Part shown: positions 44,219-64,000 of the stretch, piece by piece | Numbering within the stretch: the first letter of the stretch is position 1 | Layout of the letters: each line of letters begins with the position of its first letter | Source: an uncultured SAR86 cluster bacterium | Lineage (GTDB): Bacteria; Pseudomonadota; Gammaproteobacteria; Magnimaribacterales; D2472 | Length of the DNA stretch: 64,000 nt | Assembly (NCBI GenBank): GCA_902628925.1 | Contig: CACOPA010000001.1 | Coordinates: 326,532-390,531, forward strand | Direction of reading: 5' to 3' | The notes under the pieces: model-generated | Database searches by the model: none | Told to the model about the DNA's origin: nothing | Seen by the model: only the letters and a program-made list of their open reading frames with translations | Position numbers and translations under genes: made by a program

Positions 44219-44283
44219 ATTAAATTTAAAATATCTTTATTACATACTTAATTTATAATCCATATTCAGATTAAACAATTTTC

Positions 44284-45303: not shown

Positions 45304-45315
45304 TAGATATAAATA

Positions 45316-47622: not shown

Positions 47623-47656
47623 TAAACTTAATGTAAAATCACCATTTGAATTGTCT

Positions 47657-47730: not shown

Positions 47731-47769
47731 ATCATTTATAATATACATTGAAGGAGAATTATAGATAAA

Positions 47770-47856
47770 GCCCAGGTGGTGGAATTGGTAGACACAAGGG
47801 ATTTAAAATCCCTCGAAGGCAACTTCGTGCCGGTTCAAGTCCGGCTCTGGGCACCA
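47770..47856 (+). tRNA. tRNA-Leu (UAA), long variable arm, CCA encoded
   Basis: GCCCAGG...TCTGGGC acceptor stem, anticodon arm AGGGA-TTTAAAA-TCCCT, variable arm CGAAGGCAACTTCG, T-arm GGTTCAAGTCC. 87 nt. Confidence 0.93.
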
Positions 47857-47876: not shown

Positions 47877-48776
47877 ATGAATAATCAAAGATATAGTTAC
47901 AACGAAAATGAAATTTCATTTACAGAATTATTCAAGTCGTTTAAAAATAATTTGCAGTTTATAGTTTTTGTTACTAGTGGCTTCGCTTTATTATCAATAA
48001 TTTACTCATTAACCTTACCAAATCTATTTACCTCACATTCAATTCTAAATTTCTCAAGCAGTTCACAATCTTCATCAAGCCAGAATTACTCAGGTGTAGC
48101 TAGCCTTGCAGGAATAAGGTTATCTGGAGGAAAAGCTGATAAAGCTGATGAAATGATAGAGCTAATTAAATCTCGTGGATTTTTAGAACATTTAATTTCC
48201 TTTGATCATGTTTTGCCCTCGATAATGATACCTAAAGTTAAGAGAGATGGAGCGGTAGATTTTTCCTCAAGATCTTACAACAGCGATGAGAAGACTTGGA
48301 GAAAGGGAGCTAAGCCATCAACACTCGAAGCTCATGAAATTTATATAAGAGATTTATTAAAAATTTGGAGAGATAAGGATACTGGATTTATTAATATTCA
48401 GATAACTCATATTTCTCCAAAATTTTCATATGAATTACTATCATTAGTAATTTCTCAATCAAATGAAATTATGAGGCTTAGGGACCTTGAGGATGCAAGT
48501 AATTCGTTGTCATTTTTAACAAAGGAGATTCAAAATACATCCATTATTGAGATGAGAAATTCAATATCATCTTTGCTGCAATCACAGCTTGAAACGAAAA
48601 TGGTTGCAAATATTAGACAAGATTACATTCTTCGTACTATTGAGCCTCCTTTTATACCTGAAAAGAAATCAGCTCCATCTCGTTTAATATTTGTTGTGTT
48701 AACAACAATTATTGGGTTTTCTGTGGCTTTATTGTTTGTTTTCTTTAGAGACTTCGTATTCACTAGGACTGAATAG
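47877..48776 (+). CDS. wzz: Wzz-like polysaccharide chain-length determinant (PCP-1 family)
   Basis: N-terminal TM (FIVFVTSGFALLSIIYSL), a long periplasmic coiled region, the proline motif EPPFIPEKKSAPSR and a C-terminal TM. Confidence 0.8.
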   Translation: MNNQRYSYNENEISFTELFKSFKNNLQFIVFVTSGFALLSIIYSLTLPNLFTSHSILNFSSSSQSSSSQNYSGVASLAGIRLSGGKADKADEMIELIKSRGFLEHLISFDHVLPSIMIPKVKRDGAVDFSSRSYNSDEKTWRKGAKPSTLEAHEIYIRDLLKIWRDKDTGFINIQITHISPKFSYELLSLVISQSNEIMRLRDLEDASNSLSFLTKEIQNTSIIEMRNSISSLLQSQLETKMVANIRQDYILRTIEPPFIPEKKSAPSRLIFVVLTTIIGFSVALLFVFFRDFVFTRTE

Positions 48777-49804
48777 TGTTCATCGGTAAAAGAGAAATTT
48801 CTCATAATTTTACTCCACTAGTTATTGCTGAAATTGGAATTAATCATGGGGGATCTCTCGAGTTGGCCAAGATAATGGTAAAGCTAGCTAGAGACTCAGG
48901 GGCTGAATGTGTAAAACATCAAACTCATTTTGTAGAGGATGAGATGACTAAGGAAGCTCAATCCATCTACCCACCAAATGCAGATGATTCTATATTTGAT
49001 GTAATAAAAAGTAATTCACTCAATATGGATGAAGAAATTGAGCTCAAGAAGTTTGCTGAAGATCTTGGCCTAATTTATATTTCAACTCCATTCTCAAGAC
49101 AAGCGGCAGACTTTCTGAATGAAATTAATATTCCAGCATTTAAAATAGGTTCGGGAGAATCAAATAATCTTGCACTTATTGATCACATAGCAAGCTTTAA
49201 AAAACCAATCATTATGTCCACTGGCATGCAATCTGTTGAGTCTATTAAACAATCAGTTAGTGTTATAAACGCGTATCATGATGAAATATGTTTACTTGAG
49301 TGCACAAATCTTTACCCATCACCTCCTGAAAATGTATCTCTGCAAGGCATAATAGATTTAAAAAATACTTTTCCAGATATACCAATTGGATTCTCTGACC
49401 ATTCCATTGGACCCTCAATGGCATTAGCTGCCCTTGGACTTGGTGCATCTATTATTGAAAGACATTTTACTGATTCAAGATTTAGAAGTGGTCCGGATAT
49501 TTCTTGTTCAATGGATCCTGCTGAACTTAGATTTTTAATTGATCGTTCAAAGGAGATACATATTGCTCTCAATAATCCCAAACAAAGAACTAAAGAAGAA
49601 GAAGCAGTTTATGCATTTGCAAGGAGCTCAATTGTAGCTGATCAAGATCTTAAGAAAGGAACTATTTTAGATAAGTCTCATATATGGGCTAGAAGGCCGG
49701 GCAATGGTGAAATTTCTGGCTCAGAATTTTTTGATATTTTAGGTAAAGAATTAATCAAAGATTTATCAAAAGGTGATCAACTAAAATGGAGCGACCTTAA
49801 GTAA
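48776..49804 (+). CDS. neuB: N-acetylneuraminate (sialic/nonulosonic acid) synthase
   Basis: Collinear by eye with N. meningitidis NeuB: IAEIGINHGGSL, GAE.VKHQTH, ISTPFSR.AA, IPAFKIGSGE.NN, STGM...ESI, HFTD....GPD..CSM, and a C-terminal SAF domain. GTG start shares one base (48776, TAGTG) with the wzz stop. Confidence 0.88.
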   Translation: MFIGKREISHNFTPLVIAEIGINHGGSLELAKIMVKLARDSGAECVKHQTHFVEDEMTKEAQSIYPPNADDSIFDVIKSNSLNMDEEIELKKFAEDLGLIYISTPFSRQAADFLNEINIPAFKIGSGESNNLALIDHIASFKKPIIMSTGMQSVESIKQSVSVINAYHDEICLLECTNLYPSPPENVSLQGIIDLKNTFPDIPIGFSDHSIGPSMALAALGLGASIIERHFTDSRFRSGPDISCSMDPAELRFLIDRSKEIHIALNNPKQRTKEEEAVYAFARSSIVADQDLKKGTILDKSHIWARRPGNGEISGSEFFDILGKELIKDLSKGDQLKWSDLK

Positions 49805-49813
49805 TTAATAAAA

Positions 49814-50491
49814 ATGATTTTTTCTTTAATTCCAGCTCGTGGTGGCTCAAAAGGTATAAAAGATAAAAATCTTTCTAAGGTTGGCAATCTATCATTGGTT
49901 CTAGGAGCTATCAAATGTGCTGAGAGTAGTGGTATTTTTGATAATATAGTTGTTACCAGCGATTCATTAAAAATAAAGAAAGAGATTCAAGCAAAAAACG
50001 CTGAATTCTTGAGAAGACCTAAGTCAATTTCAACGGATTCAGCCTCAGCACGAGAGGTTGTTGAGCATTTTATATTGAGTAAAGACCTTAAAGACGATGA
50101 TATCGTAGTTTACTTGCAACCCACATCTCCTTTTAGAACAAGTAAAAATATTCATGAAGCTCTTGATATTTTTTACAGAGAAAAATGCGCAGTTACAAGT
50201 GTAAGCGAAGAAAAATTGTATTATGAAAAATATCTCACATTAGATAATGCTGAAAAACTTCGAGAGCTATTTATTAAAAGTAGTAGCTCCAATAGACAGT
50301 CTCTAAATTATGCTTTTAAACCAAATGGAGCGATTTATATTTTCAATAAACTTATGTTTGAGACAGAAGATGGATTTCCAATTAATGGCTCCTGTCCATA
50401 TTTTATGAATAAAATTGAAAGCCTGGATATAGATGATCCAAAAGACTTAGAAATTTGTAGAGCTATTTCAAAAAACTTAAATGAAAAATAA
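49814..50491 (+). CDS. neuA: CMP-N-acylneuraminate synthetase (cytidylyltransferase)
   Basis: Contains IPARGGSKGIKDKN, LQPTSPFR and NGAIY. This is the short form without an esterase domain. Confidence 0.85.
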   Translation: MIFSLIPARGGSKGIKDKNLSKVGNLSLVLGAIKCAESSGIFDNIVVTSDSLKIKKEIQAKNAEFLRRPKSISTDSASAREVVEHFILSKDLKDDDIVVYLQPTSPFRTSKNIHEALDIFYREKCAVTSVSEEKLYYEKYLTLDNAEKLRELFIKSSSSNRQSLNYAFKPNGAIYIFNKLMFETEDGFPINGSCPYFMNKIESLDIDDPKDLEICRAISKNLNEK

Positions 50492-51623
50492 AAAAATAAT
50501 TTTTTTAACAGGAACGAGAGCTGACTTTGGAAAGCAGAAAAGCTTAATAGAAAGCGTCTATGGCCATAAAGATTTTGAAGTATATATTTTTGTAACTGGT
50601 ATGCATCTTGAGAAAGAATATGGATATACATTTGAGGAGGTTAAATCTAATTTCCCAAAAAATATTATCGCCTTTAAAAATTCCAAAAAGAATAATTCGA
50701 TGGATGAGATTTTGGCTAATACTATTTTAGGCTTCACAAAAGTTGTAAAGGAGATAATTCCTGATTTTGTTGTAGTTCATGGTGACAGAGTTGAGGCTCT
50801 TGCAGGTGCAATAGTGGGAGCATTAAATAATATTAGAACTTTGCACATTGAGGGCGGTGAGAGATCTGGAACTATCGATGAATCTATAAGGCATTCTATA
50901 AGTAAGTTATCTCATATTCATTTAGTTGCCAATAATGAAGCTATGCACAGGTTGAGATTGTTGGGAGAAGATGAAAAATCTATTTTTATTATTGGATCTC
51001 CAGATATAGATATTATGAGGTCTGATAAATTACCTAATTTTGAGAAAGTATTAAAGCACTATGAGATACCATTTAAAGATTATGGAATTTTACTTTTTCA
51101 TCCCGTCACCACAAATAGCAAAGATCTACCTAAATCCGTAAAGAATCTTGTAGATTCAATCATTGATTCCAAGAAAAGATTTATTGTGATTCTTCCAAAT
51201 AATGATTTAGGTACAGAGATTATTCAATTTGAGTACAAGAGATTTACAAAAAATGAAAACATTAAGGTTTTTCCTTCTATACGCTTTGAGTATTTTTTAA
51301 GTCTACTCAAAAATTCTCAATTCATAATTGGAAATTCCAGTGCTGGAATTAGAGAAGCTCCTTTTTACGGGATTCCAACAATTAATATTGGAGATAGGCA
51401 AAGCAATAGAGCAGAGGGTGAATCTATATTAAATATAGATTTTTCCAAAAAACAAATACTTGAAGCTATAAACAATTCGTTAACTAAAAAATTCAACAGA
51501 ACTAGAGATTTTGGAGATGGAACAAGCGATAATAGGTTCTTGAAATTGCTTGAGGGGGATGATTTTTCGAATATAAAAATTCAAAAAAACTTTATTGATT
51601 TTGTTTCCATGAACACTCTTTAA
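50481..51623 (+). CDS. neuC: UDP-N-acetylglucosamine 2-epimerase (hydrolysing)
   Basis: Contains I.FLTGTRADFGK, VHGDRVEALAGAIVGALNNI...HIEGGE.SGTIDE..RH.ISKLSH.H and GNSSAGIREAP. Confidence 0.85.
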   Translation: MKNKKIIFLTGTRADFGKQKSLIESVYGHKDFEVYIFVTGMHLEKEYGYTFEEVKSNFPKNIIAFKNSKKNNSMDEILANTILGFTKVVKEIIPDFVVVHGDRVEALAGAIVGALNNIRTLHIEGGERSGTIDESIRHSISKLSHIHLVANNEAMHRLRLLGEDEKSIFIIGSPDIDIMRSDKLPNFEKVLKHYEIPFKDYGILLFHPVTTNSKDLPKSVKNLVDSIIDSKKRFIVILPNNDLGTEIIQFEYKRFTKNENIKVFPSIRFEYFLSLLKNSQFIIGNSSAGIREAPFYGIPTINIGDRQSNRAEGESILNIDFSKKQILEAINNSLTKKFNRTRDFGDGTSDNRFLKLLEGDDFSNIKIQKNFIDFVSMNTL

Positions 51624-51626
51624 AAT

Positions 51627-52937
51627 ATGAAAATTTCAATCGTTGGAACTGGCTATGTAGGTTTAGTTACTGGTATTTGTCTTGCAGAATTGGGCCACAA
51701 TGTTCTTTGCATTGATAGTGATAAAAACAAAATATCTCAGCTTAAAAAAGGTATTTCTCCAATCATTGAGAAAGGGATTAATTTAGCTCTAAAAAAAACG
51801 ATTTCATCAAACAACATTTCATTTTCTAATGAATTATCTTTAGCTTGTAATTTTAGTGATGTAATTTTTATAGCAGTTGGCACTCCAACAAAAAGTGATT
51901 CAAATGACGCTGACTTATCTATCTTAAATCATGTTTTAAGTGAGATTAAAAATTATGCAAACAGGACCAAAGTAATTGTAATTAAATCAACCGTACCTAT
52001 TGGCACAAATGATCACTTATCAAAGTTATACCCTAAAGAGTCAAGCAATCTTGTTTTTATATCAAATCCTGAATTTCTGAGAGAAGGAAATGCACTATTT
52101 GATGCAAGAAATCCTGACAGAATTGTGATTGGTGGAGTTGACGAAAATTCTATAAAAAAAGTAAAGTCGATTTATCGCAGATTTAAAAATAAAAAAATCA
52201 TTGTCACTGATCCAACTTCATCTGAATTGATTAAATATGCTTCTAACGCTTTTTTAGCATCAAAAATTTCTTTTGTTAATGAGATTGCATCAATTGCTCT
52301 TAAGGTAAATGCGAGCATATCAGACATTACATATGGTATGGGGTTAGATCCTAGGATTGGTAATTTATTCTTAAAGCCTGGTCCAGGTTATGGCGGCTCC
52401 TGCTTCCCTAAAGATGTAAAGGCAATAGATTTTTTTGCAAAAGAAAAAAACTTACACTTACCAATAATCTCAAATATCGAGGTTTCTAATCTGATCATCA
52501 AAAAGAAAATTTTAGAAAGAATTAAAATGGTGCTCGGAAAAAAGAGTAAGGTTAAAAATAAAATAATTACAATTTTTGGAGTCTCATTCAAGCCTGATAC
52601 TGATGATGTAAGAGAGTCGGCATCAGTTTTTCTCATAAAAAATCTTACTAAGCTTGGTTTGAGGATCAAGCTTTATGACCCAATCCTTTCAGATACTAAT
52701 CAAATACCATTTAAAAATAGTGAATGGTATTCATCAGCCTACGATGCAGTTTTGAAATCTCAACTTTTAATTATCATGAATGACTCTAGGGAATTTCTAA
52801 ACCTTAAGCTTAAAAATATAGCATCTTCGATGCAAAGAAAGAGGATTATGGATCTCCGAAACTTATTCAATGTAGATGACCTTTCTCAAGCTGGCTTTGA
52901 AGAAGTTTATAACCTAGATAAAGACATTGTTACATAG
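51627..52937 (+). CDS. ugd: UDP-glucose 6-dehydrogenase
   Basis: Contains KISIVGTGYVGLVTG, NPEFLREG, the catalytic-Cys motif GGSCFPKDV, and FKP.TDD.RES. Confidence 0.88.
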   Translation: MKISIVGTGYVGLVTGICLAELGHNVLCIDSDKNKISQLKKGISPIIEKGINLALKKTISSNNISFSNELSLACNFSDVIFIAVGTPTKSDSNDADLSILNHVLSEIKNYANRTKVIVIKSTVPIGTNDHLSKLYPKESSNLVFISNPEFLREGNALFDARNPDRIVIGGVDENSIKKVKSIYRRFKNKKIIVTDPTSSELIKYASNAFLASKISFVNEIASIALKVNASISDITYGMGLDPRIGNLFLKPGPGYGGSCFPKDVKAIDFFAKEKNLHLPIISNIEVSNLIIKKKILERIKMVLGKKSKVKNKIITIFGVSFKPDTDDVRESASVFLIKNLTKLGLRIKLYDPILSDTNQIPFKNSEWYSSAYDAVLKSQLLIIMNDSREFLNLKLKNIASSMQRKRIMDLRNLFNVDDLSQAGFEEVYNLDKDIVT

Positions 52938-54333
52938 AAATAAATTTAAAATCTTACTCCCTATAGAGAATATTGCTCGTGAATTTGATTATAAATTAAT
53001 TTTATCGAGTTACTTATTAGATAGAGATTATGAAATCATTATCGCTCAACATGATCTTCTATTTTTAATATCAAAGTTTATAAAAAACGGTGTATATATT
53101 GGAAAGAATACAATGACACGACTTAATAATGGAAAATGGTTCTCTGACAGGCACTATAAAATAAAAGCTAACAATATCTCTATATTTCATCTTGATGAAG
53201 AAGGCGCTGTTTATTATGGAAGAGAAGAAGACTGGGTTAAAAAGATATCAGAACTTCGAGTTGATAAGCATGCTTTTGACGAGAATGATTTTGTCCTCAC
53301 TTGGGGTAATTTCCAAGCTGATGTTTTCAAAGAGAATACCTCTGCTTATTCAAATAAAATTTTCTGTACTGGACATCCAAAGTTTGATCTTTTGAAAAAA
53401 AAATATAGCTTCTTTTATGAAACGGATGTTAGGCGCATTAAAAATGAGTTTGAGAACTATATTCTTGTAAACACAAATTTTGCTCATTTTAATAATTCTC
53501 TTGGGAACAAAGATTCACTTTCTCCTCGAATGGGCTATAAAGTAGATAATAATGATGAAAGGATTACCTCAATCAATCAATGGTCATACGTTGGAAAAAC
53601 ATTTTTAGATTTTATCAAGCTAATCACTGCATTGAGCATAGAATTTTCTGATAAGCACTTTGTTATAAGACCTCATCCTTCGGAAAGCCTTGAAATCTAT
53701 AATAAAATTTTTGATGATGTAAAAAACGTAACTGTAAAAAGAGATGGAAGCGTTATCCCATGGATTTTAGCATCTGATATAGTGATTCATGATGGGTGCA
53801 CAACAGCACTTGAAGCTTATTTTGCTACAAAACCCATTATTAATTATCATCCGCATCATGAAGAAAAAACAAATTTATATCTGCCAAACAAGGTAGGAAT
53901 TAAATGCCATGATATAGATTCTGTTAAAGAAGCAATCAACAACAAAGACAACTTACTGCAAAATTCAAATTATAGAAGGCTTGAAGAGGATACTCTTTCC
54001 ATGTCACTAGTAAAAAATATTTCCAATTTTGAAGATTCATTTCATCAAATAAAAAATTTAATACATGCAGAAATTGATAAGAATTCTCAATCTCAAGTCC
54101 AAAATTTTCAGTTAAAATTTTTCATGGCCTTCTCGAGTGCAATAAATTTTCTCAAGCTTATTTTTAGACCATTATTTTCAGAAAAGCAAAAGGATTATCT
54201 TGCATACAAGGCAATATTTCCCGGATTTGATAAAAAATTAGTTAAACATAAAATATCTCTTTTAAATAAGCATAGTAACCACATAGATATAAAATTTTTA
54301 AGTGATCAAATTATCATTCTAAATAAAAAATGA
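52927..54333 (+). CDS. Orphan GT-B-like surface-carbohydrate biosynthesis protein; candidate sialyltransferase
   Basis: 468 aa with no family recognisable by eye. Contains LDEEGAVYY (nt 53194-53205), TGHPKFD, VIRPHPSES (HP at nt 53674-53679) and HDGCTTALEA. TTG start overlaps ugd, and there is an ATGA overlap with the downstream epimerase. Confidence 0.4.
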   Translation: MLHRNKFKILLPIENIAREFDYKLILSSYLLDRDYEIIIAQHDLLFLISKFIKNGVYIGKNTMTRLNNGKWFSDRHYKIKANNISIFHLDEEGAVYYGREEDWVKKISELRVDKHAFDENDFVLTWGNFQADVFKENTSAYSNKIFCTGHPKFDLLKKKYSFFYETDVRRIKNEFENYILVNTNFAHFNNSLGNKDSLSPRMGYKVDNNDERITSINQWSYVGKTFLDFIKLITALSIEFSDKHFVIRPHPSESLEIYNKIFDDVKNVTVKRDGSVIPWILASDIVIHDGCTTALEAYFATKPIINYHPHHEEKTNLYLPNKVGIKCHDIDSVKEAINNKDNLLQNSNYRRLEEDTLSMSLVKNISNFEDSFHQIKNLIHAEIDKNSQSQVQNFQLKFFMAFSSAINFLKLIFRPLFSEKQKDYLAYKAIFPGFDKKLVKHKISLLNKHSNHIDIKFLSDQIIILNKK

Positions 54334-55319
54334 AAGTTCTCGTAACAGGATCAGCAGGGTTTATAGGATTCCATTTAAGTAAACTCCTTTTAGAGAAAGG
54401 CATTACAGTTATTGGTATTGATGGCATGACTGATTATTACGATATAAAACTTAAAGAAGACAGAAATAAAATACTTGAGAGCTATGATCACTTTACTTTC
54501 CATAGAAATATGCTGTCTGATACCGAAAAAATAATTGAAATAGTTAAGAAAAATAATGTGGATACCATAGTCCATTTAGCAGCACAAGCAGGCGTTAGAT
54601 ATTCAATTGAGAATCCAAAGTCATATATCGACAGCAATATATATGGATCATTTAGCATACTTGAAGTTGCGAGGATTTGTTCAATTGAGCATTTACTTTG
54701 CGCATCTACTTCTTCAGTCTATGGTTCTAATGTTGATATGCCATTTATTGAGAATCAGCGAACTGACTCTCAGCTAACGATTTATTCAGCAACAAAAAAA
54801 TCTATGGAATCCATGTGCCATGCTTATTCTGATCTATGGAAAATACCAATAACCGTTTTTAGATTTTTTACTGTTTATGGCCCATGGGGTCGCCCTGATA
54901 TGGCTTTATTTAAATTTGTTCGATCAGCATTAAATAATGAATCAATTGATGTTTATAACAATGGTAATATGTTTAGGGATTTTACATATGTTAAAGATTT
55001 AGTTGAGGCCATTAGACTATTGAGCTCTGTTCCACCTAGCGAAGAAATGGAATCGGATGGGTATTTTTTATCACCATACAGGATTATAAATATTGGAAAT
55101 TCAACTAAGGTTAAACTGAATGACTTTATCCAAGCTATTGAAAAGAAACTTGACTTAAAGATAAAGAAAAATTTTATGGAGATGCAAAAAGGGGATGTAC
55201 ATGCTACTTGGGCAGATTGCTCTGAACTTGAGAATTTAATTGGATTCAAGCCTTCTATAAAAGTTGAGGAAGGTATTTCAGAATTCATTGACTGGTACAA
55301 AGAATATTACAGTAATTAG
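54330..55319 (+). CDS. UDP-glucuronate 4-epimerase (NAD-dependent SDR)
   Basis: Contains VLVTGSAGFIG, YSATKKS, and the hallmark FRFFTVYGPWGRPDMA of the GlcA/GalA epimerase subfamily. Confidence 0.8.
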   Translation: MKVLVTGSAGFIGFHLSKLLLEKGITVIGIDGMTDYYDIKLKEDRNKILESYDHFTFHRNMLSDTEKIIEIVKKNNVDTIVHLAAQAGVRYSIENPKSYIDSNIYGSFSILEVARICSIEHLLCASTSSVYGSNVDMPFIENQRTDSQLTIYSATKKSMESMCHAYSDLWKIPITVFRFFTVYGPWGRPDMALFKFVRSALNNESIDVYNNGNMFRDFTYVKDLVEAIRLLSSVPPSEEMESDGYFLSPYRIINIGNSTKVKLNDFIQAIEKKLDLKIKKNFMEMQKGDVHATWADCSELENLIGFKPSIKVEEGISEFIDWYKEYYSN

Positions 55320-55326
55320 GTCTTGT

Positions 55327-56607
55327 ATGAATTTAAAAGATATCAAATTAGGAATTATTGGGCTTGGTTATGTTGGTTTGCCCTTGGCCTTAGAATTTGG
55401 AAAACAACGAAAAGTTGTAGGCTTTGATATAAGCAAAATAAGAGTAAGTGAGTTAAAAAAAAATTTCGACTCTAGTGGTGAATTTTCAAAAAATGAAATA
55501 AAAGCATCGCAAAAACTTAAATTTTCATCAGAATTGAATGATTTGAGAGCCTGTAATACTTTTATTATCTCAGTCCCAACACCCATTAATAAAAAAAATC
55601 AGCCTGATCTAAGAATTTTAAAAACAGCTACCAAAATGGTAGGTCAGATTTTAAAAAAAAGTGACATAGTTATTTTTGAGTCAACAGTATATCCTGGAAC
55701 TACAGAGGAGATATGTGTTCCTTTGCTCGAGAAAGAGTCAAATTTGATCTTTAACAAAAATTTCTTTGTTGGATATTCTCCTGAAAGGATTAATCCTGGT
55801 GATAAAGTTCATACCTTAAAAGATATTGTGAAAGTAACTTCTGGATCAGATGGTTTTTCATCAAGACTGATTGACTCACTATATGCATCAATAGTTAAAG
55901 CTGGAACATATTTGGCTGACAGTATTAAAACAGCCGAAGCTGCCAAAATTATCGAAAATACTCAGAGAGACTTAAACATTGCCTTGATTAATGAGCTTGC
56001 AATTATTTTTGAAAAGATGGACTTAGATACTTCCAGTGTTCTCCAAGCAGCTAACACTAAGTGGAACTTCTTAGACTTTAGGCCGGGTCTTGTTGGCGGT
56101 CATTGCATTGGAGTAGATCCATATTATTTAACATATAAGGCTAAAGAGCTTGGCTTAAATCCTCAGCTTATATTGGCCGGCAGATCATTAAATGATTCTA
56201 TGAGCAAATACGTAGCCACGAAATTTTACAAACAGATAAAGAAAATCTATCCAAAACCCACAAAACACAAAGTTGTTATATTTGGCGCCTCATTCAAAGA
56301 AGATTGTAAAGATGTGCGTAATTCAAAAATATTCGATGTGGTCAGTGAGTTGAACAAAAGAAATTGCCAAGTAGATATTTTCGATCCTAATTTGAAAAAA
56401 AATGATCTAATTTATTATCAGGATCTAAATTTCACCTTTAGAGCAAAATTAAAAATATCAAATTATCATGGAATTCTATTAGGAGTACCCCATAGAGGAT
56501 TTAAATCTAAGTCTGCAAGCTGGTATAGAAAATTTGGACTTAAGAACGCAGTTTTTTTTGATCTCAAATCTGTGTACCCAATCAATCAGTCTGATATTAG
56601 GCTTTAA
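55327..56607 (+). CDS. UDP-N-acetyl-D-glucosamine 6-dehydrogenase family (TviB/WbpO-like)
   Basis: Near-collinear by eye with Salmonella TviB: IIGLGYVGLPLA.EFGK...VVGFD, VPTPIN...QPDL, ESTVYPG.TEE.CVP, GYSPERINPGDK, ENTQRDLNIAL.NELAIIF, FRPGLVGGHCIGVDPYYL, C-terminal QSD.RL. Start at MNLKD (55327). Confidence 0.85.
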   Translation: MNLKDIKLGIIGLGYVGLPLALEFGKQRKVVGFDISKIRVSELKKNFDSSGEFSKNEIKASQKLKFSSELNDLRACNTFIISVPTPINKKNQPDLRILKTATKMVGQILKKSDIVIFESTVYPGTTEEICVPLLEKESNLIFNKNFFVGYSPERINPGDKVHTLKDIVKVTSGSDGFSSRLIDSLYASIVKAGTYLADSIKTAEAAKIIENTQRDLNIALINELAIIFEKMDLDTSSVLQAANTKWNFLDFRPGLVGGHCIGVDPYYLTYKAKELGLNPQLILAGRSLNDSMSKYVATKFYKQIKKIYPKPTKHKVVIFGASFKEDCKDVRNSKIFDVVSELNKRNCQVDIFDPNLKKNDLIYYQDLNFTFRAKLKISNYHGILLGVPHRGFKSKSASWYRKFGLKNAVFFDLKSVYPINQSDIRL

Positions 56608-56613
56608 TCAGGA

Positions 56614-58431
56614 ATGAAATTAATAAAGAAAATCATCTCATTGCTTTCAGCAAAAGAAAAAAAGCAAGGGATATTAGTGCTTTTGATTGCAATATTCATG
56701 GCAATATTTGAAGTTCTTGGTGTAGCTTCAGTTACTCCATTCCTAGCTGTCATGTCAGATCCAAGCATTGTTGAGTCTAATTCAACACTATCTAAAATAT
56801 ATAACGATCTAAATTTCAAAAGCATAAATAATTTTCTAATTTTTCTAGGGATTATTTCTTTTTCTATAATGCTAATTTCAGCATTTGTTAGAACATTGGG
56901 TATATATTTAATAACAAAATTTGCTCAGTTAAGACGGCACTCAATCTCACTAGTTTTATTGAATAGTTATTTATCAAAAGACTATGAGTTTTTCCTAGCC
57001 AGGGATACGGCTGAATTATCAAAAACTTTACTTTCTGAAGTTGATCAAGTTGTAAATGGTGTCATACAGCCTTTTTCATCATTGGTAGCTTATTCATCAG
57101 CCTCAATAGCACTATTACTATTTTTAATATTAATTAATCCAATTACAACGCTTGCTGCATTAGGTTTGATAGGCCTGTCTTTTTTATTAATTTTTCTATT
57201 GGTACGACCAAAGATGGCACAACTGGGATCAAAACAAATCGAAGCCAATAAGGATCGTTTCAAAGCTGCATCAGAGGCATTAAATGGAATTAAAGAAATT
57301 AAGTTATACAGGCGAGAAAGTTTCTATTTAAACCAATTTAGCAAACCTACATATTTAATGGCGAGGTACATTTCTTTCAACCAAATTTTGTCGCAAATAC
57401 CAAGGTTTTTAATTGAAGCATTTGCTTTTGGAGGAATAATTTTACTTGCCATAATGCTTCTTCAAAAATCAGGTGGAATAGAAGCAAATAATCTTGGAAA
57501 CATAATACCTCTTCTAGGATTATATGCATTTTCTGGGTTGAAGTTATTACCTGCAATTCAGGTTGTATATCAATCATCAACTCAAATCCAATTTTGGCAA
57601 TCAGCTATAAATAATTTGTTAAAAGATTTTATTAAAGGCTTGGAGGCTAAAGCTACAAATGAAATGACAGGAGATTCTATAAATTTAGGAATGTTTGATG
57701 CATTAGAGTTAAAAAACCTATCTTTCTCTTATCCAAAATCAAATCAACAGGCCTTAGAAGAAATCTCTTTTAGTATACAAAGAAATGATTCTTTGGCAGT
57801 AATTGGTAGATCTGGTTCTGGTAAATCTACGTTAGTTGATATTATTTTAGGACTTATTAAGCCAACTGGAGGCGATATTTTAATTAATAATTGTAATTTA
57901 AGAGAAAATATTATCAGGAGCTGGCAAAGCAAAATTGGATATGTTCCGCAAGAAATATACTTACTTGATAGCTCAATATATGAAAATATAGCTTTTGGAA
58001 TTGCTCTAGAGAAGATTGATAGAGAAAGGGTAAGGTCGGTATCAAAAATTGCTCAAATCTCTTCATTTATTGAAAATGAACTTGAATTTAAATATGAGCA
58101 TATTATCGGCGAAAGAGGAATACAGCTTTCAGGAGGTCAGAGACAAAGAATAGGTATTGCAAGAGCGTTATATAATGATCCCGAGATTATTGTTTTTGAT
58201 GAAGCAACTAGCTCATTAGATAATAAAACTGAAAAGGATATTATCGATTCCTTGGGATTGGTAGCAAAAGACAAAACACTAATAGTTATTGCTCATAGAA
58301 TGAGCTCAATATCTATATGTAACAAAGTTCTAATTTTAAATAATGGCTCAGTGTCAAACTTTGGTAATTACAATGAATTAAAAGATAGTGATATGTTTAT
58401 GAAAGAGCTTCTAAAGATAGAATCCCAATGA
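56614..58431 (+). CDS. Fused TMD-NBD ABC exporter (MsbA/PglK-like half transporter)
   Basis: Six hydrophobic helices in the N-terminal 320 aa. Walker A is GRSGSGKST, the signature is LSGGQRQRIGIARAL, and Walker B is IIVFDEATSSLD. Confidence 0.88.
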   Translation: MKLIKKIISLLSAKEKKQGILVLLIAIFMAIFEVLGVASVTPFLAVMSDPSIVESNSTLSKIYNDLNFKSINNFLIFLGIISFSIMLISAFVRTLGIYLITKFAQLRRHSISLVLLNSYLSKDYEFFLARDTAELSKTLLSEVDQVVNGVIQPFSSLVAYSSASIALLLFLILINPITTLAALGLIGLSFLLIFLLVRPKMAQLGSKQIEANKDRFKAASEALNGIKEIKLYRRESFYLNQFSKPTYLMARYISFNQILSQIPRFLIEAFAFGGIILLAIMLLQKSGGIEANNLGNIIPLLGLYAFSGLKLLPAIQVVYQSSTQIQFWQSAINNLLKDFIKGLEAKATNEMTGDSINLGMFDALELKNLSFSYPKSNQQALEEISFSIQRNDSLAVIGRSGSGKSTLVDIILGLIKPTGGDILINNCNLRENIIRSWQSKIGYVPQEIYLLDSSIYENIAFGIALEKIDRERVRSVSKIAQISSFIENELEFKYEHIIGERGIQLSGGQRQRIGIARALYNDPEIIVFDEATSSLDNKTEKDIIDSLGLVAKDKTLIVIAHRMSSISICNKVLILNNGSVSNFGNYNELKDSDMFMKELLKIESQ

Positions 58432-59381
58432 ATACTTTTGAGAACTTATTTTTAAATAATAAAATTACTGAAAAATATTCAAATGGAGTTATTTCTCTCA
58501 TAGAAGATGATTATCATGATAATTTTGGCTTTCAGTGGAACCAATTTAATAAGTTACAGCTAGATTCATTCAACGGATCAAATGAGTCTCTTGATAGGTT
58601 ATTATTTCAAAGCAAGTTAAAGGAAGGTGATTTTAAAGACAAATTAGTTTTGGAATTGGGAGCAGGAAATGGAAGATTTACAGAGATCTTGCTTAAACTT
58701 GGAGCAAAAGTTGTTGCAGTGGATTACTCAACGGCTATTAATGCCAATTATGAGAATCATAAATCATATGTAAATGATAATAAGTTAATGTTAGTGCGAG
58801 GAAGCTTGTTTGATCTTCCGCTTAAGAAAGAGGTTTTTGATATTGTAATTTGTTATGGTGTTATTCAGCACACTGGTGATAATAAGGGATGTTTAGACAC
58901 TATTTCTGAATATGTAAAAAAAGATGGTTTATTGCTAGTGGATATATATAGCAATAGCATAAAACACTTCAACCCATTTATATATTTAATAAGACCGTTC
59001 TTCTTTAGGATAAGTGGAGACAGGAAAAAGCTTCGAGTTGTTGAAAATTTTGTTAATAAAGTTTTTCCTGTTCAGCTAAAAGTATTGGGTTATTTGCATA
59101 ATAGAAAGGGAATATTCAAATACTTGAAATTTGTAATAAATAGATCGCCAAACTCAGTTTACGGCATCAATCTTTATCTAGACGGAAAGATTTCTATCAA
59201 GCACGCAAGAGACTGGTCCATTTGTGATACTTATGATGCATGGATGCCTAAACACGACCATCCAGTTTCTATGCGTAAATGGAGGAAATTACTTAATAAT
59301 CTTGCAATTCAAAAGGAATTTGATGTTATGAGTGTTTTTGAGTGTGGACAGGGGAATGCAGCAGTCCTAAAGAAGACTTAA
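58428..59381 (+). CDS. Class I SAM-dependent methyltransferase
   Basis: Motif I is VLELGAGNGRFTE. Also LGAKVVAVDYS, DIVICYGVIQH and GLLLVD. ATGA overlap with the ABC exporter gene. Confidence 0.8.
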   Translation: MNTFENLFLNNKITEKYSNGVISLIEDDYHDNFGFQWNQFNKLQLDSFNGSNESLDRLLFQSKLKEGDFKDKLVLELGAGNGRFTEILLKLGAKVVAVDYSTAINANYENHKSYVNDNKLMLVRGSLFDLPLKKEVFDIVICYGVIQHTGDNKGCLDTISEYVKKDGLLLVDIYSNSIKHFNPFIYLIRPFFFRISGDRKKLRVVENFVNKVFPVQLKVLGYLHNRKGIFKYLKFVINRSPNSVYGINLYLDGKISIKHARDWSICDTYDAWMPKHDHPVSMRKWRKLLNNLAIQKEFDVMSVFECGQGNAAVLKKT

Positions 59382-59382
59382 T

Positions 59383-60462
59383 GTGATTCAAAAAATAAGT
59401 GCATTAATCCCATCATTAAGTGGCGGTGGAGCTGAAAAAGTTTTTAGCTTAATTATTTGCCACGTTCTCAATGCAGGAAACTTAAATAGGGTTTATGTTG
59501 CCCATGATGAAAAACTTGAACTTTCTTTTAATCTCAACAAGCAAACAAAACTATACACTTTATCAAAATCAAAAAAGAAAAGAGCAATAAATGCAGTATT
59601 CAGACTTATAAGTTTAATTTTAAAAGATAAATCTAATAGGTTTTTTCTTACACTTGGGTATGCAAATTTAGCTTTTATTATTAGATTTTTTCGCCCTCAT
59701 TCTAAGATCTTTATAAGATTAGGCAACACAGTATCAGAAGAAATCAAAACACTAGATTTTATAAAAAAATATAGGTATTTAATTTCCTTATACTTAAATT
59801 TAAAGATATCCGACGTAGTTATTGTTCAGTCTAAATTTATGAAAAATGATTTAATTAATTTATTTCCTAAATTACAGAAGAAAATTATTCATATTTATAA
59901 CCCAATAAAACTTGGCAATAAAAAAGAATATCCATGCCCATATGATCGCCCGTATATTTTTTGTGCCTCAACTTTCAAATACCAAAAGGGAATTGACACT
60001 CTCTTAGAGGCTTTTTCAAAATATAAGCAATCAGGGGGGAGAAGATTTTTAGTAATTGCTGGGATTAGTCGCGAAAATAAAAATGTCTTACATTTAATTG
60101 AAAAAAATAATTTAAAAATGACCGATGTTGACCTTTTAGGCTTTAAAGAAAACATAGATGCTTATATTAGCAATGCAGATTTATGTGCGCTAACTTCTAG
60201 ATATGAAGGGATGAGCAATTTTTTACTCGAAGCATGCTCTTATGGAAAAAAAATTATTTGTACTGACTCCCCTGGAGGCAATAGAGAAATTGCCTCCTCT
60301 TATGAGAATATTCACTTTGCTGATGTTGATAATACAAATCAAATTGCTAAATTCTTTCATCAAACTAGAGTTGATTTAAACCAAGATAAAGCAATTAAAG
60401 CTTTAAGTGAATTCGATGAAAGCCAGATTCTTAATCAATACTATAATATTCTGATGAGTTGA
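59383..60462 (+). CDS. Glycosyltransferase, GT-B fold (GT4-like)
   Basis: N-terminus has SLSGGGAEKV. The C-terminal motif YEGMSNFLLEACSYGKKIICTD is E-x7-E-like. GTG start. Confidence 0.8.
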   Translation: MIQKISALIPSLSGGGAEKVFSLIICHVLNAGNLNRVYVAHDEKLELSFNLNKQTKLYTLSKSKKKRAINAVFRLISLILKDKSNRFFLTLGYANLAFIIRFFRPHSKIFIRLGNTVSEEIKTLDFIKKYRYLISLYLNLKISDVVIVQSKFMKNDLINLFPKLQKKIIHIYNPIKLGNKKEYPCPYDRPYIFCASTFKYQKGIDTLLEAFSKYKQSGGRRFLVIAGISRENKNVLHLIEKNNLKMTDVDLLGFKENIDAYISNADLCALTSRYEGMSNFLLEACSYGKKIICTDSPGGNREIASSYENIHFADVDNTNQIAKFFHQTRVDLNQDKAIKALSEFDESQILNQYYNILMS

Positions 60463-60479
60463 TATTTGTATCAAGAAAA

Positions 60480-62528
60480 ATGCACAATAAAATCTCAATT
60501 ATCGTTCCAGTATTTAAAGGTATTTCTCATGTTAAAGAATTTATTGAGTCATTAGAGAAATTTGAAAAGGAACCAGATGAAGTTATTTTCGTTCTCTCTC
60601 CATCCAAAGAAATCGATGAAATTCAATCATTAATTGAAAAATCTCCTTTAAATATTAAAAAACTTATTTCTAACGAAAGGCTTTATCCTGGAGCTGCAAG
60701 AAATTATGGAGCAGAAAGGGCAAAGTTTGAGTGGATAGCTTTTCTGGATATTACAACTATTCCATCACAAGTTTGGTTGAAAGAAATTACAGATGCTATT
60801 TCCAGTGAGTTAAATTTAATTACATGTAAAACAATTGCAGAAGGAAGATCTTTTTTTCAAGATATAATTAAGCAGGCAACATATGGAGATAAGCCATTTA
60901 GATCTATCCCAGGATCATGCGTTAATAAACGTTTTTTTTTAAAAAATAAGTTTTCGGAGAACATCAGAGCAGGCGAAGATATAAAGTGGTTCGAAGATAA
61001 TAAGCTGCATGTAAATGAGCATAAGATTAGTAAAATCTTAATTTCTTATCATGGATTCCCAAAAAAAATTAAGTCTGCTATAAAAAAATGGTTTAAGTAT
61101 TCACTTGAAAATGCTAAATCAGAAATCTTAAGAGAAGAAAAATTTCTCTACCTCACAATTCTTCTTATCGTATTCGCCTATTTTATTTATAACTGGAATT
61201 TTTTGTTTGCAGGGAAAGAGTGGGAGGAGAGCGAATACTTTATTCCACATATAAATAAGATAATTTGGGGTTTGGTTTTTTCTATATATTTTATTTTCAG
61301 AGGAATAATTAAGCCGAAATTAGTTTCGGTAAGTTTAAGAAAAATACTCCCATTTAGATGGATTGGAATAAGTCTTATTGGAATATTGATAGATTTTGTA
61401 AAGATGCCTGGGAGGATAATTGGATCACTTTCATTTGTGCGAAATATTTCTCCTACTGAAAGCAAAAAAATTCTATTCCTAAGCCCTTACCCAAAAGGTT
61501 GTGCTGCAGGACAAAGATTCAAGTTTGAAAACGCAATTGAGATATTAGAAAGAAATGAATATATAGTGGATCAAAATGCATTTCTAGACGTAGATTCATG
61601 GAATGTTTTGTACTCAAGAGGTTTTTATATTATTAAATTTAAAGGTCTTATCAAGGGCTACATGAAAAGGTTATTTATATTATTAAAACTTAGAAAATAT
61701 GATTATGTTTATCTATATTTATGGGGCACCCCAAGAGGTCTTCCGATTTATGAATTTTTAATCAGGCTATTAAGTAAAAGAATTATTGTTGACATTGATG
61801 ATGAAGTCTATAAAAAACAAAGTATTTTGATTTCAATTTTTACCTCAAATCTTAAAACAAACTATCTTACAAAATACGCTGACACAGTTCTTCATACATC
61901 AGAATTTTCATCTGGTGAATGTAAAAAAATAAATCTTAAAGGAAGCTCTTACTTCATTCCTTGCAACCTTGATATGAATCGATATATTAAAAAAGAATTT
62001 GTTAACTTAAATGATAGAAAAATAGTTCTTGGTTGGACTGGTACTTTTAGTTCAAAAGAATATTTAGATTCAATTAGGAATGCACTTATCACCCTTGATA
62101 AAATTGTCGACTTTAAGTTAGTACTCATAACAAATTTTGATTACGAAATTCCTTTAAAAGATTATGAATTAAAAAGATGGAAAGAAAGCAGTGAAATCAA
62201 AGATCTTAATTGTTTTGATATCGGTTTGTATCCAATTCTTTTTGACAATTGGGGTCTTTCTAAAGGTGGATTAAAGGTCCAGCAATATATGTCCTTAGGA
62301 ATCCCTAGTGTATGCACCAACCATGGAGCAGCAAAATCATTTATTAAAAATTGTGAAACCGGTTTTTTAGTTAATTCAGAATCAGACTGGGTTGAAAAGC
62401 TAAAACATTTAATATTAAACCCAGATCTCATTAAGGAAATGGGATTCAAGTCAAGAATATATGCAGAAAAAAATTTTTCAAAAGAGAATATATCCATGAA
62501 ATATATCCAGGCTCTTAAGGAATTATAA
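60480..62528 (+). CDS. Two-domain glycosyltransferase: N-terminal GT2 (GT-A), central hydrophobic segments, C-terminal GT-B (GT4-like)
   Basis: The GT2 part has ISIIVPVFKG, YPGAARNYG, AFLD and AGEDIKWF. Hydrophobic stretches span nt 61143-61400. The GT-B part has ILFLSPYP, LGWTGTFSSKEY and GGLKVQQYMSLGIPSVCT. Confidence 0.75.
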   Translation: MHNKISIIVPVFKGISHVKEFIESLEKFEKEPDEVIFVLSPSKEIDEIQSLIEKSPLNIKKLISNERLYPGAARNYGAERAKFEWIAFLDITTIPSQVWLKEITDAISSELNLITCKTIAEGRSFFQDIIKQATYGDKPFRSIPGSCVNKRFFLKNKFSENIRAGEDIKWFEDNKLHVNEHKISKILISYHGFPKKIKSAIKKWFKYSLENAKSEILREEKFLYLTILLIVFAYFIYNWNFLFAGKEWEESEYFIPHINKIIWGLVFSIYFIFRGIIKPKLVSVSLRKILPFRWIGISLIGILIDFVKMPGRIIGSLSFVRNISPTESKKILFLSPYPKGCAAGQRFKFENAIEILERNEYIVDQNAFLDVDSWNVLYSRGFYIIKFKGLIKGYMKRLFILLKLRKYDYVYLYLWGTPRGLPIYEFLIRLLSKRIIVDIDDEVYKKQSILISIFTSNLKTNYLTKYADTVLHTSEFSSGECKKINLKGSSYFIPCNLDMNRYIKKEFVNLNDRKIVLGWTGTFSSKEYLDSIRNALITLDKIVDFKLVLITNFDYEIPLKDYELKRWKESSEIKDLNCFDIGLYPILFDNWGLSKGGLKVQQYMSLGIPSVCTNHGAAKSFIKNCETGFLVNSESDWVEKLKHLILNPDLIKEMGFKSRIYAEKNFSKENISMKYIQALKEL

Positions 62529-62529
62529 A

Positions 62530-64000
62530 ATGTGTGGAATTGCTGGCCTTATTTCTAAAGTTCCAATTAATTCTCAAAAAAAAGACAGCTTTGAAAATGT
62601 TTTAAGAAGTTTTGATCATAGAGGTCCCGATTATTCTGATACCTGGATTGATAATTCAAATAATATAATTCTTGGACATAATAGGCTCTCTATAATTGAC
62701 CTATCAGCTTCTGGTCATCAGCCAATGTCCTCAATGTCAGGCAAATTAAAAATTGTTTTTAACGGAGAAATATATAACTTTCAGTATTTAAAGAAAAAAC
62801 TTGATTCTGTTAAAGAAATTCGCTGGAAAGGATCCTCTGACACTGAAATTCTTATTGAGCATATAGATCACTTTGGGTTAAGCAATACTCTTGAGAGTAT
62901 TGAAGGAATGTTTGCATTTGCTCTATGGGATATTGAGAAAAAGAACCTGCAATTGGTTCGAGATAGAGCTGGCGAGAAACCGCTTTATTATGCTCTCTTA
63001 AATGGTGAATTTATTTTTGCATCAGAGATTCATGAAATTAATAATTTTTTTATGAATACCTTGAATATCGATCATGAAGCATTAAAAAAATATTTAAAAA
63101 AATCTTGCATCTCTGCACCTTCTTCAATCTTTGAAGAGATTAAAAAGTTAGAACCTGGTCAAACTTTAAAATTTGACGCTACTAAATTTAACTTCTCTGT
63201 ATCACATTATTGGGAGCTTAAAGATATCATTCAAAAAGAAACAAAAAGACGTTCAATTAAATTAGACAGCACTTCTGCAAAAAAGAGTACATTGAATATT
63301 CTAAAAGAGGTTGTTAATTCGCAAATAATAAGTGATGTCCCCATTGGTGCTTTTTTATCAGGAGGAATTGATTCAACCTTAATTAGTGCTATTGCAAATG
63401 ATTCATTAAGCGGAAAGTTAAATACATTCTCAATAAGCTTTGATGACAAATCTTTCGATGAATCAAGTCATGCAAAGGTTGTAGCCGATAAATTAAAAAC
63501 AAATCACATTGAATTTAAGCTCCATGAGGATGAAGCGTTAAGCCTACTTAAGCAAGTTCCATATATTTATGATGAACCGTTTGCAGATTCATCTCAGATC
63601 CCAACTCTTTTGTTATGTAGAGAATCTAGAAAATATATTACTGTTGCATTAACAGGTGATGGAGGCGATGAAGTATTCGGTGGCTATAACAGATACATCT
63701 ATGGACCAAGGTTCTTGAGTCTTAAAAAAATTATTCCAAATAAGCTCTTTACAAGTTTCGGTATAAATATTTCTGCAAAACCTCTTATTAAATTAATGAC
63801 TAAATTAAGATTTTTACCTGCATCATCGCAATTACGTCTATCAAGATTCGTAGATGTTTTCAGGTCTTCAAAAGATTTGAGTGGTTTCTATGAAAATATT
63901 ACTGATCTAAGCAATCTTTCAGATGAATTACTGATTAAAAAATCTTATGAAAATATACCACCGACAGATAATGAAGAAATATTTGATCTTGATATTAATG
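62530..64000 (+). CDS. Asparagine synthase (glutamine-hydrolysing)-like amidotransferase (WbpS-like), runs off the right edge
   Basis: Absent from the ORF track because no stop lies in the window. My translation begins MCGIAGLISK...HRGPD...LGHNRLSIIDLS..GHQPM..., with Cys2 as the Ntn nucleophile. The PP-loop is SGGIDSTLISAIA (about 63358-63396). The frame stayed open in the stretches I translated (about 62530-63000 and 63001-63720); 63721-64000 was not translated. Confidence 0.85.
   Translation, partial: MCGIAGLISKVPINSQKKDSFENVLRSFDHRGPDYSDTWIDNSNNIILGHNRLSIIDLSASGHQPMSSMSGKLKIVFNGEIYNFQYLKKKLDSVKEIRWKGSSDTEILIEHIDHFGLSNTLESIEGMFAFALWDIEKKNLQLVRDRAGEKPLYYALLNGEFIFASEIHEINNFFMNTLNIDHEALKKYLKKSCISAPSSIFEEIKKLEPGQTLKFDATKFNFSVSHYWELKDIIQKETKRRSIKLDSTSAKKSTLNILKEVVNSQIISDVPIGAFLSGGIDSTLISAIANDSLSGKLNTFSISFDDKSFDESSHAKVVADKLKTNHIEFKLHEDEALSLLKQVPYIYDEPFADSSQIPTLLLCRESRKYITVALTGDGGDEVFGGYNRYIYGPRFLSLKKIIPNKLFTSFGINISAKPLIKLMTKLRFLPASSQLRLSRFVDVFRSSKDLSGFYENITDLSNLSDELLIKKSYENIPPTDNEEIFDLDIN

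Follow-up and report, generated by a model that had tools for sequence, protein, structure and literature searches.

Gene content of the locus

The window analysed here is a stretch of 64,000 nucleotides from an uncultured bacterium of the SAR86 cluster (contig CACOPA010000001.1, positions 326,532 to 390,531 of the forward strand). Its last part, positions 47877-64000, holds the left ~16 kb of a surface-polysaccharide locus which, when the window and metagenome contigs are combined, extends to ~34.6 kb and ~30 genes. At its centre lies a fused ATP-binding cassette (ABC) exporter of the PglK/Wzk type, accompanied by Wzy, Wzz and Wza/Gfc components and by no Wzx; these are known parts, although judged from gene content their combination appears to fit neither a textbook assembly route nor that of Helicobacter pylori. 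Comparison of the open reading frame (ORF) listing with Pfam, NCBIfam and the PDB gave 13 genes in this part of the window, every one on the + strand:

47877..48776, + strand: Wzz-type polysaccharide co-polymerase (PCP) without a kinase domain (PF02706, 36.8 bits; cut-off 25.5)
48776-49804, + strand: neuB (TIGR03569, 348 bits)
49814-50491, + strand: short CMP-nonulosonate synthetase (CTP_transf_3)
50481-51623, + strand: neuC (TIGR03568, 410 bits; cut-off 236)
51627..52937, + strand: ugd, UDP-glucose 6-dehydrogenase (all three UDPG_MGDP_dh domains; TIGR03026, 417 bits)
52927..54333, + strand: TIGR04396-family protein of 468 aa, initially described as an "orphan GT-B" (316 bits; cut-off 125)
54330..55319, + strand: short-chain dehydrogenase/reductase (SDR) epimerase, most like UDP-GlcA 4-epimerases (PDB sequence comparison)
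55327..56607, + strand: TviB/WbpO-like UDP-GlcNAc 6-dehydrogenase (NF011729, 511 bits, under the cut-off of 592)
56614..58431, + strand: PglK/Wzk-family fused ABC exporter, 605 aa (ABC_membrane + ABC_tran)
58428..59381, + strand: S-adenosylmethionine-dependent methyltransferase (Methyltransf_11/12/25/31)
59383..60462, + strand: GT4 glycosyltransferase (Glycos_transf_1, 84 bits)
60480..62528, + strand: GT2-TM-GT4, a membrane-anchored dual glycosyltransferase with transmembrane (TM) helices (Pfam; AlphaFold2 model)
62530..64000, + strand: AsnB-type glutamine amidotransferase, truncated at residue 490 of 646 by the window edge (Asn_synthase + GATase_6/7; TIGR03108, 360 bits)

All thirteen genes named in the initial annotation were recovered at their positions and on the + strand. 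The near-continuous packing that it described was also seen, with spacings of -11 to +17 nt between consecutive genes, and the minus-strand ORFs of the cluster are short and nested in + strand genes. That the window edge cuts the cluster is clear from the truncated asnB and from the ~18 kb of further locus found on other contigs.

The fused ABC exporter

The ABC protein is a fused half-transporter with its transmembrane and nucleotide-binding domains in one chain, and its AlphaFold2 model has six long TM helices together with the nucleotide-binding domain; no peptidase domain is present. It had been called a PglK/Wzk/MsbA-type exporter, and PglK is indeed its best NCBIfam model (342 bits), followed by HepA (264) and, in third place, MsbA (260), all of them scoring far under their equivalog cut-offs. 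Because the nucleotide-binding domain dominates such profile scores, the membrane domain (residues 1-345) was searched separately. PglK was then the sole match in the whole PDB (E 7e-20), with residues 3-337 aligned to PglK 1-329 from end to end, and neither MsbA nor any other exporter was matched at E <= 0.001.

The structural model points the same way. Built from 66 homologues, with a predicted local distance difference test score (pLDDT) of 89, it has outward-facing PglK (6hrc) as its top Foldseek match (TM-score 0.82/0.88) at 30% identity, as against 20-24% identity to MsbA, TM287/288, ABCB8 and others. Short helices (residues 40-48, 52-55 and 57-65; pLDDT 90-94) are modelled between TM1 and TM2, the place of the external helix in PglK, to which they may correspond; this region (40-65) aligns to PglK with a single one-residue gap. 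The functional arginines of the PglK cavity, for which binding of the pyrophosphate has been proposed, are R86, R260, R302 and R309 (PMC5395944). In an alignment of 109 family members Arg or Lys stands at the R302 position in 99% and at the R260 position in 77%, an Arg one helical turn from R86 is conserved in 99%, and R309 is lost; three of the four functional charges of PglK are kept family-wide, one of them displaced by a helical turn. The window protein itself has R at R260, K at R302, S at R86 (with R one turn later) and V at R309. Gene identities, gene order and this affinity to PglK are direct observations; taken together, sequence and model indicate that the ABC protein is a relative within the PglK family and not the Campylobacter orthologue, and it is the only candidate for a flippase in the locus. 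The ABC and GT4 proteins recur with identical sequence on 20-23 marine metagenome contigs that are 99.9% identical to the window, Tara assemblies included; for the ABC protein the number is 23.

The locus beyond the window edge

The rest of the locus was read on two sets of contigs, one 99.9% identical to the window (L001-L011) and the other from a relative strain with 95.8% identity (L012-L016). Contigs of the 95.8% strain were reached through a protein cluster member of the GT-C-PRK fusion described below, and the far end, on L016, through a metagenome scan. The complete 646-aa AsnB was read on L002. Beyond asnB the genes are, in order, those for an EpsG-family protein, a HAD phosphatase, GtrA, the GT-C-PRK fusion, a class II aldolase-like protein, a 209-aa protein, two NTP-transferase-like proteins, a 246-aa GT2, a 561-aa membrane protein, a second AsnB copy (623 aa), a GT4, OPX, YjbH and YjbF, after which unrelated genes on the opposite strand form the right end. 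Four of these bear directly on polymerisation and export:

L002 17854-18912, just past the window edge: EpsG-family protein (Wzy-type), 352 aa (Pfam, 150 bits; cut-off 30.1)
L016 (95.8% strain): Wza-like OPX, 881 aa (Poly_export + SLBB domains)
L016 (95.8% strain): YjbH/GfcD (622.8 bits)
L016 (95.8% strain): YjbF/GfcB (47.1 bits)

The EpsG-family protein has ~7 or more TM helices. Several Wzy polymerases of Acinetobacter (A. baumannii) belong to the same Pfam family (PMC9241936), and the Wzz of this locus therefore has its usual partner. The initial report of no Wzy was true of the 16 kb in the window but misleading for the locus, in which the EpsG gene is the first after asnB. By their family assignments, OPX, YjbH/GfcD and YjbF/GfcB make up a set for export across the outer membrane like that of group 4 capsules.

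In the Pfam results for the ~30 genes of the ~34.6 kb locus there was no MOP-family flippase (Wzx; Polysacc_synt or MVIN type), and the same span gave no match to an initiating phosphoglycosyltransferase (Glycos_transf_4 or Bac_transf) or to the Wzy_C/WaaL family. Nor did it contain Wzm/Wzt, KpsMT or another two-component ABC-2 transporter, its only ABC protein being of the fused type. Direct profile scans of the locus genes lacking a precomputed Pfam match were likewise without MOP, phosphoglycosyltransferase, Wzm/Wzt, KpsMT or Wzy_C hits. GfcC/YjbG, Etk (Wzc kinase) and Etp were absent among the called genes, and no PglB was seen in the locus. What had been noted for the window, that Wzx, Wzm/Wzt, KpsMT and an initiating transferase are missing, thus holds over the full ~34.6 kb. 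The 44 kb upstream consist of housekeeping genes, and no wzx or transferase candidate was present among those scanned.

Related loci

Homologues of the ABC protein with 40-48% identity are widespread, both within and outside the Gammaproteobacteria. Six related contexts were read (L018, P0146, L019, L020, L021 and L022); the homologue sits in a polysaccharide locus in all six, and in none of them was a Wzx or other MOP flippase found. The closest are a single-cell genome (L018) and a JGI contig (P0146), whose ABC proteins are 47-48% identical to that of the window. In P0146 the cluster begins directly after pgsA and without rfbBADC, a different version of the cluster in a related lineage. Both keep a module made up of the nonulosonate genes, a TIGR04396-like gene, ugd, epimerase, TviB, ABC, methyltransferase, GT4, AsnB and GT2-TM-GT4, in which the ABC and methyltransferase genes remain adjacent. 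Their module also includes a 299-aa PCP-like protein with two TM helices, which scores 22.6 bits with the Wzz model and shares 23% identity with the window Wzz (E 6e-10), and the gene for it adjoins that of a 10-TM protein, both lying between asnB and GT2-TM-GT4.

More widely, four of the six loci have a TviB-like gene, usually with the epimerase, ahead of the ABC gene; in Neptunomonas (L019) and a second single-cell genome (L020) TviB and epimerase are immediately upstream. In a metagenome-assembled genome (MAG) of the Porticoccaceae (L021) the ABC gene is accompanied by OPX, Wzz and a WecA-type transferase, and in Thioalkalivibrio (L022) by a PglC-type transferase and two GT2s.

Co-polymerase, sugar precursors and transferases

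The Wzz-type protein has a GNVR match of 20 bits and one TM helix at each end (about residues 29-47 and 270-288), its sequence matches to the solved FepE and Wzc being insignificant. NeuB scores under the TIGR03569 cut-off (348 against 399.65 bits), yet well over PseI (241 bits), and no Leg or Pse dehydratase/aminotransferase genes occur anywhere in the locus; neuB, the CMP-nonulosonate synthetase and neuC are predicted to make CMP-N-acetylneuraminic acid (CMP-Neu5Ac). Among solved and functionally characterised enzymes the SDR epimerase is closest to the Bacillus cereus UDP-GlcA 4-epimerase 6zl6 (165 bits), ahead of MoeE5 (130) and WbpP (87), and its top PDB match overall is 5u4q (352 bits, deposited as a dTDP-glucose 4,6-dehydratase). 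The precursors first proposed from the genes, namely CMP-Neu5Ac, UDP-GalA, UDP-GlcNAcA, uronamides and dTDP-Rha, are upheld by the profile matches as predictions at the level of the family.

TIGR04396 carries the NCBIfam label "surface carbohydrate biosynthesis protein". The window member reaches 78 bits with the BFO_1060 family, under the cut-off of 200, and has neither a Pfam match nor a PDB sequence match. A nonulosonate transferase of Tannerella belongs to the BFO_1060 family (PMC5420450), and we regard the window protein as a candidate nonulosonate (sialyl) transferase. The methyltransferase gene overlaps the ABC stop codon by 4 nt, and the GT4 has PglJ as its best, weak NCBIfam match. 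In the AlphaFold2 model of GT2-TM-GT4 (pLDDT 91.3) a GT-A domain is followed by membrane helices and then a GT-B domain; in fold searches the C-terminal half matches BshA, PglA, MshA and PimA, and for the GT2 half no GtrB- or DPMS-type structure was among the top 50 matches, which were ordinary GT4/GT2 enzymes instead. The window copy is one residue off the recorded copies (C for R). Both halves stand alone in many organisms (GT2+TM at ~320-400 aa, GT4 at ~360 aa), and among the best matches full-length fusions are much rarer than the separate halves.

Chromosomal setting and further genes of the locus

Two features adjoin the locus on its left:

44284..47622, + strand: rfbB-rfbA-rfbD-rfbC, dTDP-L-rhamnose synthesis (NCBIfam, 469, 449, 277 and 225 bits)
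47657..47856, + strand: tRNA-Cys(GCA) and tRNA-Leu(TAA), the left boundary of the locus (ARAGORN)

The four rfb genes, all above their NCBIfam equivalog cut-offs, lie upstream of the tRNA pair. Two contigs with otherwise 99.9% identity to the window, L001 and L006, have a spacer between the two tRNAs (window 47731-47770) that is 33 nt shorter than that of the window, L002 and L003. Further upstream, gyrA-serC-pheA-hisC-tyrA-aroA-cmk-rpsA (29745-39630) precede the locus, which starts with wzz, and uvrC-pgsA are followed by tRNA-Cys and tRNA-Leu (41919-47856). The former arrangement, with wzz first, is that of Pseudomonas (the P. aeruginosa O-antigen site), and the order uvrC-pgsA-tRNA-Cys-tRNA-Leu is that of enterobacteria such as E. 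coli, where it likewise marks a well-known site of O-antigen genes. Both orders are consistent with a gammaproteobacterial origin. The comparison of composition suggested at the outset gave a GC content of 31.1% for the locus and 35.4% upstream, with GC3 just slightly lower in the locus; this is a weak signal and no clear sign of a foreign origin. The ops element of RfaH-dependent operons, GGCGGTAG, has no exact match in the window, nothing being found upstream of wzz, and scans of the window for promoters and terminators gave results at or below chance.

A cassette running from the HAD gene to the GT2 gene occupies L012 8955-17452 (~65.5-74 kb in window-equivalent positions) and was also read on L007 (9968-15824). 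Its HAD protein is RuBP-5-phosphatase-like, and one of its members is the following:

667 aa: fusion of a GT-C-like membrane domain with a phosphoribulokinase (PRK)-family domain

A scan of a genome collection with this fusion gave one relative, 35% identical, in a Bacteriovoracaceae MAG, where the core of the cassette is found in the same order at 30-46% identity. The fusion has hundreds of relatives, Flavobacteriia included, labelled just "uridine kinase", "GT87" or "hypothetical". The cassette looks like a Gtr-type unit for periplasmic glycosylation with a dedicated source of an unusual sugar phosphate; we know of no characterised example of such a unit.

The 561-aa membrane protein (L012 15767-17452) has ~9-11 TM helices and a soluble C-terminal part of ~200 aa. 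It was considered as a hidden Wzx, WaaL or oligosaccharyltransferase and rejected, there being no family match and its topology being unlike that of Wzx: no Pfam, NCBIfam or PDB match appeared even at E <= 1-10, and BLAST comparisons with EpsG and with the GT-C domain were likewise negative. The motif WADYRYG, ~45 residues past its last TM helix, recalls the WWDYG of STT3/PglB; it has no other support and could be chance.

In three long-read, pilon-polished contigs (L013, L014 and L015) the ABC, GT4, GT2-TM-GT4 and 561-aa genes are split in two ORFs, in combinations which differ by contig, and the same four genes are unbroken in the short-read contig L012 from the same population. Indel errors of long reads in AT-rich sequence are the likeliest cause, natural frameshift variation being the alternative. 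Finally, a gene convergent with yjbF (L016 9975-10664, - strand) encodes a secreted-looking protein of 229 aa, rich in Ala, Pro and Thr and with a (PTPA)n repeat, which might be a counterpart of the threonine-rich GfcA.

Discussion

Three assembly routes are recognised for bacterial surface glycans, with the Wzk of H. pylori as an exception to them, and the type of flippase is used to predict the route from sequence. The product of the present locus is best explained, on its gene families, as an acidic capsule or an O-antigen-like polysaccharide. For its assembly we tentatively favour, at a little below an even chance, a hybrid route, with Wzy/Wzz polymerisation supplied by a PglK-type flippase and followed by Wza/Gfc export; each step and each protein partnership set out here we infer from the genes. 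Cytoplasmic enzymes would supply CMP-Neu5Ac, UDP-GlcA/GalA, UDP-GlcNAcA and dTDP-Rha, from which the GT4s, GT2-TM-GT4 and the TIGR04396 protein could assemble a unit linked to lipid pyrophosphate, to be amidated by the AsnB enzymes and methylated by the methyltransferase. The PglK-type ABC protein would then flip the unit, in the usual role of Wzx, and the EpsG-type Wzy would polymerise it under the control of Wzz, the polymer passing to the surface by way of the Wza-like channel together with GfcD/YjbH and GfcB/YjbF. The Gtr-like cassette (GtrA, GT2 and GT-C) probably adds a periplasmic side group, and the initiating phosphoglycosyltransferase and any ligase would be encoded elsewhere in the genome. 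A much less likely idea, and a low-probability speculation, has the dual transferase itself initiate the chain on undecaprenyl monophosphate through its GT2-TM half, which would account for the missing phosphoglycosyltransferase.

The hybrid route has an experimental precedent. An E. coli wzx mutant regains O16 O-antigen when it is given Wzk, the PglK homologue of H. pylori; a flippase of the PglK type is therefore able to supply a Wzy/Wzz pathway, although H. pylori itself is without Wzy and Wzz (PMC2841628). A PglK/Wzk-clade flippase working with Wzy and Wzz is so far known solely from such laboratory complementation, and in the literature searched no description was found of a natural system joining PglK/Wzk with Wzy or Wza. 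The broader proposal, that a PglK/Wzk-clade ABC protein has replaced Wzx as flippase of the repeat unit in a Wzy/Wzz-dependent, Wza/GfcD-exported capsule, and that this natural hybrid line is widespread in marine Gammaproteobacteria, is possible but somewhat short of an even chance.

Several observations weigh against the hybrid route. The ABC protein, for all its affinity to PglK, scores 341.6 bits where the PglK equivalog model (NF050066) has a cut-off of 1000, and from the second NTP-transferase-like gene onward the locus was read solely in the 95.8%-identical strain. The region examined amounts to ~82 kb of a source contig of at least 456 kb, and genes for Wzx, an initiating transferase and WaaL may be present outside it. 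The ABC gene has as conserved neighbours a methyltransferase and a dual-domain transferase, as would be expected if polymerisation took place in the cytoplasm with a methyl cap. Moreover, the loci of Neptunomonas, the Porticoccaceae MAG and Thioalkalivibrio are without a polytopic Wzy-like protein within 10 kb of the ABC gene, which fits the flipping of a whole chain better than that of a repeat unit.

The last two points belong to the main rival explanation, in which the glycan made by the ABC-linked module (TviB, epimerase, GT4, GT2-TM-GT4 and AsnB) is polymerised in the cytoplasm on undecaprenyl pyrophosphate, capped by methyl and/or Neu5Ac, flipped whole by the ABC protein in the manner of Wzk and then ligated or exported, with Wzz, EpsG and Gfc serving a second glycan or export only. 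ABC-dependent pathways have multi-domain polymerising transferases, which the dual-domain GT2-TM-GT4 resembles. The overlap of the ABC and methyltransferase genes, whose adjacency is conserved in both of the closest related loci, also favours this explanation, as do the distant loci that carry the ABC protein with no Wzy-like membrane protein near it, the Porticoccaceae set of OPX, Wzz, WecA and ABC, which resembles a KpsE/KpsD-style export complex, and the fact that H. pylori Wzk does work in this way (PMC2841628). Yet H. pylori, the sole characterised case, is without the Wzy and Wzz that are both in the operon here; the PCP-like and 10-TM genes lie within the ABC module of the closest divergent locus, and a second glycan served by EpsG would still be without a flippase in the locus. 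We consider whole-chain flipping unlikely on balance but a serious competitor, and sequence alone does not separate it from the hybrid route.

The locus might instead be a conventional Wzx/Wzy one, with wzx and the initiating transferase elsewhere in the genome and the ABC protein accessory or redundant. Genes for initiating enzymes, wecA among them, frequently lie apart from O-antigen loci; Wzy, Wzz, OPX and Gfc are all usual components of capsule systems of the group 1/4 type; and the part of the contig that was examined is the ~82 kb given above. A wzx gene is, however, normally found inside the locus whose unit its product flips, the ABC gene is conserved in its module across lineages at 40-48% identity with no MOP flippase in any of the six related loci, and the membrane domain of the protein is specifically PglK-like; this explanation we hold to be improbable. 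It is the one that the initial annotation had said would follow if ordinary wzx/wzy genes and an initiating transferase lay immediately downstream and the ABC protein clustered with unrelated exporters. Of these, a Wzy was found, whereas the ~18 kb downstream gave no Wzx or initiating transferase and the ABC protein groups with PglK. Very improbable indeed is a role of the ABC protein unrelated to the flipping of glycans, whether as the housekeeping MsbA, which flips lipid A, or as an exporter of peptides or drugs found in the locus by chance. All type IV ABC exporters have a single common fold, and the NCBIfam scores for MsbA (260 bits) and for type I secretion and bacteriocin exporters are substantial, but those scores stem largely from the shared nucleotide-binding domain, and with the membrane domain alone PglK is the only solved exporter matched at E <= 0.001. 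The higher identity to PglK than to MsbA and others (30% against 20-24%), the overlap with a neighbouring gene in a glycan operon, the polysaccharide setting of all six homologues and the lack of a peptidase domain likewise speak against such an exporter.

The hybrid route can be set beside several known systems, each of which shares some part of it. With PglK (WlaB) of Campylobacter jejuni and Wzk of H. pylori the ABC protein has in common a fused architecture of the homodimer type, a setting in a glycan operon, a possible counterpart of the external helix and most of the basic residues of the cavity. It is, however, only 30% identical to PglK, which feeds an oligosaccharyltransferase where this locus has Wzy-like, Wzz, OPX and Gfc genes. 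Wzk in turn feeds WaaL in a pathway without Wzy and Wzz (PMC2841628), whereas here both are present and neither WecA nor WaaL was seen in the locus. The Wzx/Wzy-type group 1/4 capsules and O-antigens (E. coli G4C gfc/yjb; P. aeruginosa OSA) provide the closest likeness for the remainder, namely wzz in first place, an EpsG-family Wzy, a Wza-like OPX, GfcD/YjbH and GfcB/YjbF; they differ in that Wzx, the Wzc/Etk kinase, the Wzb/Etp phosphatase, GfcC/YjbG and an initiating transferase are missing from the locus described here. The export set had initially been described as atypical, and with Wzy and the outer-membrane components present this no longer applies to the set as a whole; what stands is the PglK/Wzk-type ABC protein in place of Wzx.

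In its sugars the locus recalls the P. aeruginosa O6 wbp cluster and Salmonella Vi, with a TviB/WbpO-like dehydrogenase and AsnB/WbpS-like amidotransferases from which N-acetyl-hexosaminuronic acids and their amides are predicted, although the adjacent SDR is nearer to UDP-GlcA 4-epimerases than to WbpP/TviC. O6 uses Wzx/Wzy with WbpL and Vi uses the KpsMT-type VexBC, and neither set is in the locus. The general O-glycan cluster of Tannerella forsythia belongs to a protein O-glycosylation pathway that uses Wzx. Its chemistry resembles that predicted for the present locus, with uronic acids, amidation, methylation and a terminal nonulosonic acid accompanied by a protein of the BFO_1060/TIGR04396 type (PMC5420450); it differs in that the BFO_1060 match here is under the cut-off and that polymerase and capsule export genes are present.

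The case for a hybrid locus is one of gene content, not of function. Should it be correct, a recurrent locus of PglK-type ABC protein, Wzy, Wzz and Wza/Gfc would mean that these modules are mixed in nature, beyond complementation experiments, and automated pathway calls that rely on Wzx would misclassify such loci. The predicted coat, acidic, amidated and bearing sialic acid, would be relevant to encounters with phage and grazers in surface seawater, since the bacterium that carries it is an abundant uncultured inhabitant of the ocean, as indicated by the 23 contigs with an identical ABC protein.

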